Source: a virus. From it: DNA of 5,841 bases. The position numbers and the translations under genes are program-made. The notes under the pieces are model-generated. The model did no database searches and was not told the DNA's origin. It worked only from the letters and a program-made list of their open reading frames with translations. Below, one piece after another: positions 441-5,129 of the stretch; position 1 is the first letter of the stretch; every line of letters begins with the position of its first letter. The stretch lies in the IMG/VR virus record IMGVR_UViG_3300029794_000110; one strand, written 5' to 3'.

Positions 441-490
441 GGTGTCACCTAGCCCAGTACCTATCAAGTAAGTACTGGGCTTTATTATTC
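441..490 (+). terminator. Perfect 10-bp stem (451-460 AGCCCAGTAC / 472-481 GTACTGGGCT) with an 11-nt loop, followed by the T-rich run TTTATTATT. Likely an intrinsic terminator after VP4, or a structured ssDNA element.
   Basis: The reverse-complement match of the two arms was read directly. It sits 24 nt after the VP4 stop and is followed by a U-rich tract. Confidence 0.6.
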
Positions 491-869: not shown

Positions 870-898
870 TTGACAATTGTAAAGAGATGTGCTATAAT
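870..898 (+). promoter_or_regulatory. Consensus sigma70-type promoter: -35 TTGACA (870-875), exact 17-bp spacer, -10 TATAAT (893-898). Predicted TSS near 905.
   Basis: Exact match to both bacterial consensus hexamers with optimal spacing. It lies immediately upstream of the first ORF after the intergenic region. Confidence 0.65.
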
Positions 899-923: not shown

Positions 924-1103
924 ATGATGTACGAATACACTGAAAACAAAAAGGTAAAATGGTACATTTCACCCATTGACAACAGCATTAGGTTCCCTTA
1001 TACTTACAACAAGAAGATGAAGTGCTGGGACAACAGAACCTGCCAGCTGTCAAGACAAAGGATCCACCAGCTAGAAAAAGAAAACAAAATAATGTGGATG
1101 TGA
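924..1103 (+). CDS. Hypothetical small protein (59 aa, MMYEYTENKKVKWYISPIDN...). Its stop overlaps the upstream alternative ATG of the peptidase gene (ATGTGATGA).
   Basis: ATG at 924, preceded by GAGG at 912-915 (8-nt spacer), directly downstream of the consensus promoter. No similarity recognised. The upstream part of the 729..1103 track ORF overlaps the repeats and promoter and is not considered coding. Confidence 0.35.
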   Translation: MMYEYTENKKVKWYISPIDNSIRFPYTYNKKMKCWDNRTCQLSRQRIHQLEKENKIMWM

Positions 1104-1117
1104 TGAAAGGAGACAGC

Positions 1118-1501
1118 ATGAAACACGTAAACTACATAAAAGCAGACTTCGGAAAAGTAAGCGAGCACTTCAAAGCGAGAGAATTTCAGTGCAAAGACAA
1201 AACAGAAGGACTGCTAGTCGCAACAGAACTAATTGAAACACTGGAAAATATTAGAAGTCACTTCAACGCACCGGTCATCATCAACAGCGGATACCGTACG
1301 CCAAGCTGGAATGCAAAAGTAAACGGAACATCAAACAGCTACCACTGCAAAGGGATGGCGGCAGATATCGTAGTAAAAGGACACAGCAGTAGAGAAGTCG
1401 CAAAGTACGCGGATAGTATCATGGAACAGGGCGGCGTAATCAGATACACAAACTTTGTACACGTTGACGTGCGCGAAGAGCGATACAGAAAGGGGGTGTA
1501 G
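1118..1501 (+). CDS. Peptidase M15 family (M15A / DUF882 / YcbK-like zinc D-Ala-D-Ala carboxypeptidase fold) cell-wall hydrolase. Putative lysis enzyme.
   Basis: ATG at 1118 with AAGGAG at 1107-1112 (5-nt spacer); an alternative in-frame ATG lies at 1103. Protein motifs: SGYRTPSWN, zinc-ligand block SYHCKGMAADIV (His, Asp) and FVHVDVRE (His), all characteristic of peptidase M15 / Peptidase_M15_3. No signal peptide or TM segment is visible. Confidence 0.85.
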   Translation: MKHVNYIKADFGKVSEHFKAREFQCKDKTEGLLVATELIETLENIRSHFNAPVIINSGYRTPSWNAKVNGTSNSYHCKGMAADIVVKGHSSREVAKYADSIMEQGGVIRYTNFVHVDVREERYRKGV

Positions 1502-1611: not shown

Positions 1612-1836
1612 ATGATGATGCACAAAACATGGAACGTCAGAGACCAGACCGAAGAAACACTCAGGCTAGAGGCCGAAAGGCTATACAAACAGATAGAAGC
1701 CGGATACAAGATGATAAAAAAAGTATCCAAGCTAGAAGACGCCGAAAAGATCATTGATCAAATCTGGGTTATGAAGAAATGGGCCAACGACATCGAGCTA
1801 GAGCTACTCAGAAGGGAGTACAACAATGAAGCATAG
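1612..1836 (+). CDS. Hypothetical protein, 74 aa, acidic/helical (MMMHKTWNVRDQTEETLRLEAERLYKQIEAGYK...).
   Basis: ORF starts 2 nt after the previous stop, with AAAGAG upstream. It is co-directional and tightly packed with its neighbours, and its 3' end overlaps the next ORF by 11 nt. Confidence 0.4.
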   Translation: MMMHKTWNVRDQTEETLRLEAERLYKQIEAGYKMIKKVSKLEDAEKIIDQIWVMKKWANDIELELLRREYNNEA

Positions 1837-1945
1837 ACAGAGAATGCCAGCGAAAACCGACAAGCGCATGTTCAACGTAACGGCACGCAAGACAAAGAGT
1901 ATCAACCTCAGCCAGAAACCCATGCGGGGCGGCATCAGACTGTAA
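1826..1945 (+). CDS. VP8: Small highly basic protein, 39 aa (MKHRQRMPAKTDKRMFNVTARKTKSINLSQKPMRGGIRL). Probable DNA-binding/packaging protein, gokushovirus VP8 / phiX J analogue.
   Basis: Strong SD GAAGGGAG at 1811-1818, 7 nt before the ATG. About one third of residues are Lys/Arg. Size and composition match Microviridae DNA-condensing proteins. Confidence 0.6.
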   Translation: MKHRQRMPAKTDKRMFNVTARKTKSINLSQKPMRGGIRL

Positions 1946-1959
1946 AGGAGAAAAAAAAC

Positions 1960-2202
1960 ATGATTCATAAGTACTATGGCATCTACGACAGCGTAGCAAA
2001 GAGTTACTGCTACATTGGCGAAAACAAGAGCAACGAAACGTTTGCACGAATGTGCAACATCATGGCAAAGGACGAGAAAACCTTCCTCGGCCAGTCGCCT
2101 GAAGACTACAAGGGCTACCATATCGCAAACTTCAACGATGAAAACGGCCAGTTCGAGAGCATTGAGCCGGACAAGGTCTGGGAGGGCAAGCCGCATGAAT
2201 AA
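1960..2202 (+). CDS. Hypothetical 80-aa protein in the VP5 position (immediately upstream of VP3). Possible VP5-like ssDNA-synthesis/packaging protein.
   Basis: ATG at 1960 after AGGAG (1946-1950) and an A-run. Ordinary amino-acid composition, unlike the overlapping frame-2 reading. The stop overlaps the VP3 start (ATGAATAA). The VP5 assignment rests only on position and size. Confidence 0.45.
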   Translation: MIHKYYGIYDSVAKSYCYIGENKSNETFARMCNIMAKDEKTFLGQSPEDYKGYHIANFNDENGQFESIEPDKVWEGKPHE

Positions 2203-2590
2203 ACGATACGAGGAAGGGCGAAAGCCCTTCTTTTCGAATCCGGGCGAAAAACTACGCAAGCAGTACGTCTGGGGCAAAGACGAAAAAGGCGAAAAAAAAC
2301 TGATTGAAACGGAGCCAATCGACATTCAGGCCGAAATCGAAAGCTATGCAGACGAATGCGACATTAAAAACATCGTCCGTAAAGCAAGTTTTGACCCTGA
2401 ATTTGCAAAAAGTCTAGTAGACAGCGCAAAAACGGACGAAGTCGTCGATATCACGGAATGGCCAACCAACATTCACGAGTACCACGCCATGATGGCAACG
2501 GCGCAAGCCACGGCAATGGAAATCCAACGAAATCAGAAAAAAGTTGCGGAAGTACCTGTAGAAAAGGAGAAGAACAATGAACCGGAATAA
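2195..2590 (+). CDS. VP3: Internal scaffolding protein VP3 (131 aa).
   Basis: Contains the conserved gokushovirus VP3 block AEIESYADECDIKNIVRK (DECDI(N/K)NIV motif). The start at 2195 has GGAGGG 8 nt upstream. The longer frame-2 extension back to 2015 is low-complexity S/T/R-rich and overlaps the 80-aa ORF, so it was rejected. The 3' end overlaps VP1 by 14 nt. Confidence 0.8.
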   Translation: MNKRYEEGRKPFFSNPGEKLRKQYVWGKDEKGEKKLIETEPIDIQAEIESYADECDIKNIVRKASFDPEFAKSLVDSAKTDEVVDITEWPTNIHEYHAMMATAQATAMEIQRNQKKVAEVPVEKEKNNEPE

Positions 2591-4256
2591 CGAACGGCAC
2601 TTTAACAATGTACCACAAACACATGTGAGCCGAACACGTTTCAAACGAGACCAGAACATTCTCACAACCTTTGACGCGGGAAAACTCATTCCGTTTTACG
2701 TAGATGAAGTTCTTCCGGGCGATACATTCAACGTGAGTACGGCGGCAATCATCCGAATGACAACGCCGAAATATCCCGTTTTTGACGATTCTTTCATCGA
2801 TTTCTACTATTTCTTCTGTCCTAACAGAATCCTATGGGACCACTTCCAGCGTTTCATGGGTGAAGCAGACGATGCACCGTGGATGCCGAAAAGAACTTAT
2901 CAGGTGCCAAAAATCAAAATCGCATCAAACGCAAAAGCAAACGAAGACGACCACTTCCTAGGGCCAAAAGAAGGAAGCGTCCTGGATTACATGGGAGTGC
3001 CGACAAAAATCAACGAAAAAGAAGGAGCCAAAGAAACGTACATAAACGCACTGCCAGTCAGAGCTTACGTGAAAATCTGGAACGAGTTCTTCAGAGACCA
3101 AAACGTAGGAAATCCGGCAACGGTATGTACAGACGATGAAGACAGAGATTATAACGATAAAGAAGACGAATGCACAAACGAAATTCTACGCAAGGCAAAC
3201 CTAGGCGGGCGTTGTCTTCCGGTAAGTCGCTACCACGACTATTTCAGCTCCTGTCTGCCGTATCCTCAGCGAGGGCCGGAAGTAACCATCGCACTGACAG
3301 GAAATGCACCTATTAAAATGTACGGTAACGACGGAATCAACGGGCAGACAGAACCGACGACAATCTGGATGAGTGCAACCGCATCATTTCTAACACAGAA
3401 CAGTGAAGATGAATCGATCCTTGCGCTCGGCGCAACAGGGCAGACAGATGGAACATCCGTTTCAAGACTCATTGCAACGGACCTGAGCAACATCGAAGCC
3501 ACAACCATCAACCAGCTCCGACAGGCTTTTGCAGTACAGCACTATTACGAAGCGCTGGCACGTGGCGGCAGTCGCTACCGCGAACAGGTAAGAGCGCTTT
3601 TTGGAGTAACGATCAGCGATAAAACAGTTCAGGTGCCTGAGTATCTAGGTGGCGGACGCTATCACGTGAATATTAATCAGATCGTGCAGACCAGCGGACA
3701 GCAGACCGAAAACGACACGCCTATAGGCGAAACGGGTGCAATGTCGGTAACTCCTATCAACGAAAGTTCCTTTACAAAGAGCTTTGAAGAGCATGGCTTT
3801 GTTATCGGTGTCATGTGTGTACGTCACAATCACTCCTATCAGCAGGGTTTGGAACGCTTCTGGAGCCGTTCAGACAGACTGGACTACTACTTCCCGCAGT
3901 TTGCAAATTTGGGGGAACAGCCTGTCAAGAAAAAAGAAATCATGTTGACTGGCACAGACACAGACGATGAAACTTTCGGATATCAGGAAGCCTGGGCAGA
4001 CTATCGCATGAAGCCGAACCGCGTGAGCGGCAAAATGCGGAGTAACGCACAGGGAACGCTGGATTTCTGGCACTATGCAGACAACTACGAAACGGTGCCG
4101 ACACTCAGTCAAGAGTGGATGAACGAAGGCAAATCAGAAATTGCAAGAACACTGATCGTTCAGGACGAACCGCAATTTTTTGGAGCAATCCGAGTAATGA
4201 ACAATACAACACGCTGTATGCCGCTGTATAGCGTGCCGGGACTGGAAAAACTGTAA
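2577..4256 (+). CDS. VP1: Major capsid protein VP1 (559 aa), Microviridae F-protein family, gokushovirus type.
   Basis: N-terminus MNRNNERHFNNVPQTHVSRTRFKRDQNILTTFDAGKLIPFYVDEVLPGDTFNV is the canonical gokushovirus VP1 signature. AAGGAG lies 7 nt upstream. The length is typical. Confidence 0.95.
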   Translation: MNRNNERHFNNVPQTHVSRTRFKRDQNILTTFDAGKLIPFYVDEVLPGDTFNVSTAAIIRMTTPKYPVFDDSFIDFYYFFCPNRILWDHFQRFMGEADDAPWMPKRTYQVPKIKIASNAKANEDDHFLGPKEGSVLDYMGVPTKINEKEGAKETYINALPVRAYVKIWNEFFRDQNVGNPATVCTDDEDRDYNDKEDECTNEILRKANLGGRCLPVSRYHDYFSSCLPYPQRGPEVTIALTGNAPIKMYGNDGINGQTEPTTIWMSATASFLTQNSEDESILALGATGQTDGTSVSRLIATDLSNIEATTINQLRQAFAVQHYYEALARGGSRYREQVRALFGVTISDKTVQVPEYLGGGRYHVNINQIVQTSGQQTENDTPIGETGAMSVTPINESSFTKSFEEHGFVIGVMCVRHNHSYQQGLERFWSRSDRLDYYFPQFANLGEQPVKKKEIMLTGTDTDDETFGYQEAWADYRMKPNRVSGKMRSNAQGTLDFWHYADNYETVPTLSQEWMNEGKSEIARTLIVQDEPQFFGAIRVMNNTTRCMPLYSVPGLEKL

Positions 4257-4295: not shown

Positions 4296-5129
4296 ATGGC
4301 AGGATTAGGAGCAATGTTAGCAAGCGGAGCGGCCAAAGTTGGAACATGGCTAGCAAATAATCCGGCAGTTGTAACCGGAGCGATGCAATTACTAGGCGGC
4401 GGACTGTCATCAATGTACGGTCAAAAAAGCGAGAACTTTAGCCAAAGCAGCAACGTAAGCACAGGAAAAGGCGGGGGAAGTTCACTAAGCGTTTCAGAAG
4501 GAGGAACGAATGACGAACAAATAATGAAATACCTCGACCAATACTATAACTGGCAAGGAGGACAAAACGCTTTCCAAAGCAAAACGAACCGCCAAAACAT
4601 GCTAATGCAGATGGGCTATAACACACTGGGAGCGATCCAACAGGGAATTTATAACCATATCGAGCAAAACGCTGCAATGCAGTACAACAGCGCCGAAGCA
4701 CTGGCAAACAGAAAGTTTCAAGAGCGTATGAGCAGTACAGCATACCAAAGAGCCGTTGAAGATATGCGAAAAGCAGGATTAAATCCCATTTTAGCATACG
4801 CACAGGGCGGAGCAAGCACGCCGGGTGGCTCAGGTGCAACCATCACTGGCGCAAGTATGGGAATGCCAGCCTCAAGCGCATTGGGAGTATCAGCACTAAG
4901 CGGCACAGTACCAAACAGCTATTACAGCAAAAGCATAGCAAAATCAACATGGTACCAGCTCTCAGAAGCCGTAGGAAGCCAACTATCAAAGGGCTATACA
5001 AGTCCATACGAGCTAACGAAGGACCTGCTAGACACATACAAACAATTAGAGAAAACAGATAAAACAGTGCCGTTTACAGCAGGCGGTGGAAAATTCAACA
5101 CAGGAAAAGGAGGAGGAAGAAAGAAATGA
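4296..5129 (+). CDS. VP2: Minor capsid / DNA pilot protein VP2 (277 aa).
   Basis: Conserved gokushovirus VP2 core NRKFQERMSSTAYQRAVEDMRKAGLNPILAY, with Gly-rich termini. Possible alternative start at 4314 (AGGA 9 nt upstream). The TGA stop overlaps the VP4 ATG (ATGA). Confidence 0.85.
   Translation: MAGLGAMLASGAAKVGTWLANNPAVVTGAMQLLGGGLSSMYGQKSENFSQSSNVSTGKGGGSSLSVSEGGTNDEQIMKYLDQYYNWQGGQNAFQSKTNRQNMLMQMGYNTLGAIQQGIYNHIEQNAAMQYNSAEALANRKFQERMSSTAYQRAVEDMRKAGLNPILAYAQGGASTPGGSGATITGASMGMPASSALGVSALSGTVPNSYYSKSIAKSTWYQLSEAVGSQLSKGYTSPYELTKDLLDTYKQLEKTDKTVPFTAGGGKFNTGKGGGRKK

Follow-up and report, generated by a model that had tools for sequence, protein, structure and literature searches.

Gokushoviruses are among the most abundant phages of the mammalian gut. 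The locus described here raises the question of how a gokushovirus that encodes a peptidoglycan peptidase with no export signal and no holin could bring this enzyme to the bacterial cell wall. The peptidase, referred to as M15, is the only recognizable lysis-related function of gokushoviruses and is fixed in the clade to which the present genome belongs. We favor a reading in which M15 would serve as an accessory cytoplasmic endolysin, one that accelerates or completes lysis after the membrane has been breached and is not self-sufficient, and we assign it a probability of roughly 0.65. If solved, the export step would represent either a new, holin-free form of endolysin delivery or the long-sought intrinsic mechanism of gokushovirus exit.

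The window, i.e. the whole stretch of DNA that was analyzed (5,841 nt; IMG/VR record IMGVR_UViG_3300029794_000110), covers a circular microvirus genome (5718 nt) in full, and the remaining 123 nt of the stretch are terminal redundancy. IMG/VR UViG 3300029791_000087 (L001) is an identical genome. Membership in the Gokushovirinae was judged on a Phage_F capsid protein VP1, a Chlamy_scaf VP3, a Phage_ORF5 VP5, a Rep VP4 and a pilot protein VP2, together with a circular genome of ~4.5-6 kb and the placement of all genes on a single strand; all of these proteins were found, and the plus strand holds every gene of the genome (Table 1). Gokushovirus identity thus rests on the Pfam matches to Phage_F, Chlamy_scaf, Phage_ORF5 and Rep and on the top DNA matches of the genome, which are Gokushovirinae records. 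VP2 matched PHROG 8742, "pilot protein for DNA ejection", with E = 7.7e-102. The small protein o39 has a net charge of +11, matched PHROG 10695 (E = 3.6e-11) and keeps its C-terminus, ...RGGIRL, in all lineages; it is probably a VP8/J-like DNA-binding protein. The 59-aa ORF upstream of M15 is kept in only ~7 relatives, has no hydrophobic segment and gave no match in Pfam, PHROG or NCBIfam. It is not a holin.

Table 1. Features of the gokushovirus genome, with positions numbered along the window
Feature	Positions	Strand	Basis
Rep/VP4	5126 wrapping to 427	+	Pfam/PHROG
Conserved intergenic hairpin, AGCCCAGTAC-11 nt-GTACTGGGCT, 10-bp stem, located past the VP4 stop, with a T-rich run downstream	451-481	+	
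Promoter with the perfect extended sigma-70 consensus, TTGACA-17-TGnTATAAT; M15 begins ~220 nt downstream	870-898	+	12/12 match
Hydrophilic, variable accessory ORF starting at ATG 924 (59 aa)	924-1103	+	
Shine-Dalgarno-like motif of M15, AAAGGAG, with a 5-nt spacing to the ATG	1106-1112	+	read from sequence
M15 gene, 127 aa, probable accessory endolysin	1118-1501	+	Pfam PF08291, PHROG 894
o34, 34 aa, amphipathic helix	1505-1609	+	
o74, 74 aa, hydrophilic helical	1612-1836	+	
o39, 39 aa, highly basic, VP8/J-like	1826-1945	+	PHROG 10695
VP5	1960-2202	+	Pfam Phage_ORF5
VP3	2195-2590	+	Pfam Chlamy_scaf
VP1	2577-4256	+	Pfam Phage_F
VP2 pilot protein	4296-5129	+	PHROG 8742

The M15 reading frame opens at ATG 1118 and closes at TAG 1499-1501. 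The first-pass annotation had read its product as a zinc peptidase of the M15A/DUF882 fold in a microvirus and had named a profile search as the check, and the search bears this reading out. M15 scored 83.6 bits on Pfam Peptidase_M15_3 (PF08291, MEROPS M15A; cut-off 23.2, E = 1.3e-23), residues 17-117 aligning with profile positions 2-108 of 108 as a single domain, and the motifs quoted earlier were all found, namely SGYR (57-60), SYHCKGMAADIV (74-85) and HVD (115-117). PHROG 894, "endolysin", was matched with E = 3.4e-36. The match to Peptidase_M15_2/DUF882 was weaker (E = 5e-8), and the NCBIfam equivalog for MepK (NF053624) gave 47.4 bits against a cut-off of 185; the protein is therefore not MepK, and the likeness is at the superfamily level only. 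The H-x6-D...H motifs of the zinc triad are present as S74-Y-H76-C-K-G79-M-A81-A-D83 and F113-V-H115, then D117, in agreement with the published definitions S-x-H-x-x-G-x-A-x-D and (W/F)-x-H (PMC13461873, PMC5025407). R60, H76, D83, H115 and D117 are invariant among 20 diverse homologues, down to 39% identity, and the predicted zinc-binding and catalytic residues of the protein are intact.

The top match of known structure was 1LBU, the zinc DD-peptidase of Streptomyces albus G, by sequence (E = 7e-4) as well as by profile (E = 2e-7). A Foldseek search of the PDB with a model of M15 also returned 1LBU first, but weakly (probability 0.94, E = 0.048, TM 0.43), with hedgehog N-domains as secondary matches behind it. 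The weak fold match is due to the model, which is only moderate (pLDDT 74, and <50 in the loop of residues 62-77 that leads into the first zinc ligand, H76), and the evidence for the fold therefore comes mainly from the sequence profiles. By family, M15 is a predicted zinc-dependent peptidoglycan peptidase of the M15A type, with a presumed muralytic activity. The 1LBU enzyme and E. coli MepK (YcbK, DUF882; an L,D-endopeptidase) share the LAS/M15 fold superfamily and the metal-binding motifs with the viral protein. Both of these enzymes are exported and act outside the cytoplasm, whereas the viral M15 has no export signal. M15 is under purifying selection, with a median dN/dS of 0.13, and so are its neighbors o34 and o74. 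A gene hidden within M15 was considered and rejected, given that the synonymous rate showed no marked local drop and never fell below 0.65 of the gene mean.

The N-terminus of M15, MKHVNYIKADFGKVSEHFKAREFQ, is charged, and the protein as a whole contains no uncharged run of at least 7 residues and has a maximum mean hydrophobicity of 0.25. A scan of hydrophobicity and charge found no signal peptide, SAR domain or transmembrane segment in the protein, and a possible upstream extension from GTG 1022 is likewise hydrophilic, so that the earlier description of the enzyme as leaderless stands. Canonical endolysins are normally leaderless and cytoplasmic. Only the missing holin is odd about the M15 enzyme, not its leaderless state.

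Holins were sought among the ORFs of all six frames, a 19-mer average of 1.4 or more on the Kyte-Doolittle scale being the threshold. The single plus-strand ORF to pass, a marginal candidate, was 3784-3948, which lies in the +1 frame within VP1 and has a hydrophobic N-terminus and a basic C-terminus. It was considered as an overprinted E-like lysis gene and rejected because stops break the frame in many close relatives, six codons in for L003-L005, L009, L011, L019 and others. A 50-aa hydrophobic ORF that follows VP4 in ~11 relatives was also rejected, as a conserved DNA hairpin and T-rich tract read as protein; in an alignment of ~35 relatives its frame shifts via indels, and a stop closes the copy in this genome. 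Among ~50 relatives no further conserved plus-strand transmembrane ORF was found, nor was a conserved alternative-frame ORF with an N-terminal transmembrane helix of the phiX174 E type. Synonymous rates across M15, o34 and o74 showed no strong suppression, except at the known overlap of o74 and o39. Since the hydrophobic frames are artefacts and the ~50 relatives hold no other conserved transmembrane ORF, the absence of a holin extends to the whole clade, and the claim that this genome has no evident holin or E-type lysis gene is upheld. Only one membrane-like segment encoded by the genome is conserved, namely residues ~1-42 of VP2, a Gly/Ala-rich N-terminus. VP2 has a mean hydrophobicity of 0.50, the highest among the proteins of this genome that were compared, and the corresponding N-termini of relatives have Kyte-Doolittle values of 1.3-1.6. 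Lysis of a microvirus host in the absence of a holin is exemplified by phiX174, whose E is an overprinted transmembrane protein that inhibits MraY non-enzymatically; the present genome differs in having no conserved overprinted transmembrane ORF.

Three independent entry points, M15, Rep and an o74 profile, were used to sample the clade and gave 140 loci. Full-length M15 was present in 131 of these. The 9 exceptions were contigs truncated at or in M15, or one frameshifted "UNVERIFIED" record, and M15 is therefore fixed in the clade. L099, L113, L121, L080, L106 and L062, which had been candidates for close relatives lacking M15, were rejected on the same ground, as truncated contigs or the frameshifted UNVERIFIED record. 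Identity in M15 and identity in Rep do not run in parallel: relative to this genome, a Rep that is 84% identical occurs with an M15 that is only ~46% identical, and a Rep that is 37% identical occurs with an M15 that is 70% identical. By these comparisons M15 behaves like an exchangeable cassette, inserted just upstream of o34. The gene was acquired horizontally from tailed phages or bacteria and now stands at the promoter-proximal end of a gene block.

In a second sampling, relatives of a distant M15-bearing lineage were collected via Rep, and complete, terminally redundant genomes were tallied. M15 and o34 were both present in 123 complete genomes and both absent in 8; o34 occurred without M15 in 13, and M15 without o34 in 0. 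The occurrence of o34 in 13 complete genomes that lack M15 marks it as a core small protein with an M15-independent role, ahead of which M15 was inserted. Homologues of o34, 28-40 aa in length, were found in L036, L037, L040, L044, L050, L054, L055 and L204-L221, and the protein, which carries the motif L-x-x-L-D-x-I-Y-H, is kept across gokushovirus lineages with VP1 just 40-55% identical; it appears to be a small core gene, so far unrecognized, that is shared by a large group of gokushoviruses. The M15-less sister genomes (L205, L212, L235 and others) have an unchanged gene order, with no other recognizable lysis gene and no transmembrane ORF except the VP2 N-terminus. Sisters that lack both M15 and any lysis gene imply that gokushoviruses probably have an intrinsic, M15-independent exit route, and this route may also release M15.

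Two further small ORFs were observed in the M15-less sisters L204-L238. The slot upstream of o34 holds a small acidic, Cys-containing ORF of ~52-55 aa (MKSYYEEEVENCAAALYDGGW...), and a 55-79 aa ORF, M[RK][ST]Q[IV].KR.N[IV]NLT..., lies between VP2 and VP4. Example coordinates from these sisters are 5482-5649 in L205 and 5413-5571 in L212.

The presence of an M15 gene in gut gokushoviruses has been known since 2012, and its presumed role is textbook-level for the field. The novelty implied by the first-pass annotation is therefore not sustained, the same gene and the same endolysin proposal being found in Roux et al. 2012 (PLoS One, PMC3394797). Among Gokushovirinae and Alpavirinae associated with humans, that study described 11 genes of the Peptidase_M15_3 family and demonstrated their horizontal acquisition. 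It also pointed out that homologues in tailed (pro)phages have holins as neighbors, and suggested that the proteins are endolysins. The present gene shares with them the Pfam family, the virus type, the gut habitat, the slot between Rep and the small ORFs/VP5, and the proposed role of a horizontally acquired endolysin. There is no essential difference. The genome belongs to a sub-clade in which the M15 allele is 80-91% identical internally. Such peptidases have been treated as accessory lysis genes by Kirchberger and Ochman 2020 and by Kirchberger et al. 2022, the latter also documenting recombination of the peptidase between microvirus families, and M15 genes have been reported in the cultured Occultatumvirinae. 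GenBank records of gut gokushoviruses carry "peptidase M15" at the same position (KX513868, KX513877, Microviridae sp. MG945xxx); the nearest GenBank copy, KT264792, has 74% aa identity, and hundreds of copies that are 80-91% identical were found in a protein database, on metagenomic contigs of ~5.5-6 kb.

How the enzyme crosses the membrane is not explained in Roux 2012, in Kirchberger 2020/2022 or in the literature on the Occultatumvirinae and on phage Ebor. What the comparison of genomes adds is that M15 is fixed in its clade, cassette-like and accessory, with neighbors that are not dedicated partners. The value of the genome lies in being a further example and in these comparative constraints, to which sigma-70-type promoters may be added.

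The closest functional guides are single-domain Peptidase_M15_3 enzymes of tailed phages that infect Gram-negative bacteria, namely LysPM1 of Proteus phage Homer, peptidase M15A of Burkholderia phage ST79 and Spp64 of Shewanella. These M15A endolysins resemble the microviral protein in their single domain, their size (~116-130 aa; ST79 ~18 kDa with a His-tag), their zinc-triad motifs, 1LBU as the nearest structure and the lack of a signal peptide, and a related Proteus phage homologue (H39) is ~45% identical to M15. The only feature that distinguishes microviral from tailed-phage copies is a short hydrophilic N-terminal extension of the former. LysPM1 (116 aa; PMC13461873) and ST79 M15A (PMC5025407) lyse permeabilized Gram-negative cells or sacculi, and the activity of LysPM1 is lost with EDTA and partly restored by Zn2+ (PMC13461873). 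In ST79, lysis is reported with a holin, LysB and LysC (PMC5025407), none of which is encoded by this microvirus. A homologue in Faecalibacterium phage FP_oengus, 46% identical and annotated as an endolysin, has an annotated holin two genes away, and the prophage homologue in L051 is flanked by an SLT gene and three ORFs with transmembrane segments; both thus sit in lysis cassettes with membrane proteins, whereas the microvirus has no such genes.

Among microviruses, Ebor (Tainavirinae; host Rhodobacter capsulatus) encodes a peptidoglycan hydrolase, Gp7, that is muralytic by biochemistry (mBio 2025, PMC11980548). Gp7 resembles M15 in being an accessory wall-degrading enzyme encoded in a microvirus genome. 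A predicted membrane protein of 45 aa, Gp1, is also encoded by Ebor and has no counterpart in this genome. Membership of Gp7 in the M15 family was considered and found no support, its HHpred template (6SSC) being absent from the PDB profile matches of the M15 alignment.

In the mechanism that we propose, M15 would be made without an export signal and would accumulate, folded, in the cytoplasm during infection. It would gain access to the wall only after a late-stage loss of cytoplasmic membrane integrity, and would then cleave peptide stems or cross-links of the sacculus, so that lysis would be sped up or completed and virions let out. The breach itself might come from a membrane-active VP2 N-terminus, from one of the small core proteins, for example o34, or from general failure of the envelope. 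The endolysins of lambda-type systems do not cause lysis unless a holin is present, and a release mechanism must therefore exist. Hydrolysis of peptidoglycan has been shown for homologues; the muralytic activity of M15, its timing and its route across the membrane are inferred. The fixation of M15 in the clade could also reflect a function other than lysis.

The alternative that survives best assigns the missing step to the neighboring genes. Here o34, or o34 with o74, would be a non-transmembrane substitute for a holin or an export chaperone and would form a two-gene module with M15; o34 would gather at the cytoplasmic side of the membrane and permeabilize it, or would escort M15 across. Precedent for an escort is found in mycobacteriophage Ms6, in which Gp1 takes LysA across the membrane. 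The arrangement of the genes is in keeping with such a module: o34 starts 3 nt past the M15 stop in this genome and 0-3 nt past it in 5 of 7 distant lineages (~150 nt downstream in L050 and L054), it has its own Shine-Dalgarno sequence within the 3' end of M15, and M15 without o34 was seen in 0 of 190 loci. The o34 protein is strongly constrained (dN/dS 0.046) and combines a hydrophobic moment of 0.70 with a mean hydrophobicity near zero, but its net charge of 0 and heptad-like pattern fit a soluble coiled coil equally well. It has no database annotation, and neither o34 nor o74 matched a holin, disruptin or chaperone family in Pfam, PHROG or NCBIfam. An obligate module of M15 and o34, as the adjacency in distant lineages had suggested, was rejected on account of the 13 complete genomes that have o34 without M15. 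The o74 family (73-81 aa, helical, dN/dS 0.14) is kept across the clade and near relatives only; it has an invariant W-N-x-R-D near the N-terminus, WNVRDQ in this genome, and A-N-x-I-E-x-E-L near the C-terminus, and it is absent from the L044 lineage whether M15 is present there or not.

The first-pass suggestion that the enzyme may depend on an adjacent micro-ORF is therefore weakened. A dedicated partner is contradicted by o34 in the 13 M15-less genomes and by the lack of o74 in M15-bearing lineages; what is left is a role for o34 that is not specific to M15. The alternative, also when put more widely as o34 or VP2 acting as an unconventional membrane-breaching or escort factor, is unlikely.

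A second alternative dispenses with the crossing altogether. M15 would be a single-gene lysis enzyme acting in the cytoplasm, where it would hydrolyze D-Ala-D-Ala, UDP-MurNAc-pentapeptide or lipid II, so that wall synthesis is starved and a holin is not needed. VanX and VanY provide the model for hydrolysis of D-Ala-D-Ala or of pentapeptide precursors. The leaderless state of M15 and the lack of a holin in the genome are what such an enzyme would predict, the solved structure nearest to it, 1LBU, is that of a muramoyl-pentapeptide DD-carboxypeptidase, and characterized small lytic phages commonly block peptidoglycan synthesis, phiX174 E being an example (Roux 2012, PMC3394797). The homologues of M15, however, cut mature sacculi and derive from holin-bearing cassettes, and the N-terminal extension is the only sequence feature that sets the microviral protein apart from them. 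In addition, ST79 M15A was over-expressed for 4 h in E. coli and purified with no lysis reported, yet it degrades the E. coli wall (PMC5025407). We consider cytoplasmic destruction of precursors quite improbable.

The more general proposition that M15 is a truly holin-independent lysis effector, whether by precursor destruction, as an enzymatic counterpart of phiX174 E, or by release through the amphipathic o34, is likewise doubtful. If true, it would constitute a lysis strategy undescribed for any phage endolysin of the Peptidase_M15_3 family.

The earlier suggestion that M15 is virion-associated, read here as an entry enzyme opening the wall for the VP2 DNA conduit, can be set aside as highly improbable. 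Tailed phages do often have virion-associated wall hydrolases (PMC13461873), and purified Ebor virions contained its lysin in traces, but only VP1, VP2 and Gp10 were present in those virions in significant amounts (PMC11980548). M15 lies in the promoter-proximal non-structural block away from VP1, VP2 and VP3, it is missing from sisters whose capsid and pilot proteins are similar, and a small T=1 capsid would offer limited internal space.

Across 223 related genomes, the plus (coding) strand contains 60 copies of the perfect TTGACA-17-TATAAT promoter and the minus strand contains 0, against 0.07 expected; the Bacteroides-type TTTG/TAnnTTTG motif has 0 copies on the coding strand. These counts suggest that the host RNA polymerase reads canonical -35/-10 signals, as in Firmicutes or Proteobacteria, and not those of Bacteroidota. 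A Bacteroides or Prevotella host, as indicated by MAG bins, was judged unreliable because the contigs are free 5.7-kb molecules binned by coverage; it also clashes with the sigma-70 promoter signal. Two complete, microvirus-sized contigs of 5.7-5.8 kb, L054 (CAVKUS010000079.1) and L055 (CALBJK010000280.1), were observed inside GTDB species-representative MAGs labeled Bacteroides sp. CAG:545 and Prevotella sp., respectively. Their presence there is most likely binning contamination; they are most likely neither prophages nor evidence of a host.

The intergenic region that follows VP4 is highly conserved, in the hairpin at 451-481 and in further parts at 486-543 and 580-760. Downstream of the hairpin is an alternating CG/CA palindromic tract, CGCGCACACACG...ACGCGTGCGCACG, and past this tract are several GTTGAAAAC-like direct repeats. 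The conserved region could be a terminator, a complementary-strand origin or a set of iterons.

Some of the contigs collected were ~1.5-2 times genome length, namely L100/L167 (IMGVR_UViG_3300045988_004182, 10.7 kb), L072/L141 (10.9 kb) and L092/L143 (8.8 kb). At least one of them, L100, has two distinct Rep genes, which are 36% and 84% identical to the Rep of this genome. The over-length contigs are probably chimeras made in assembly, or concatemers from the co-assembly of two microviruses.
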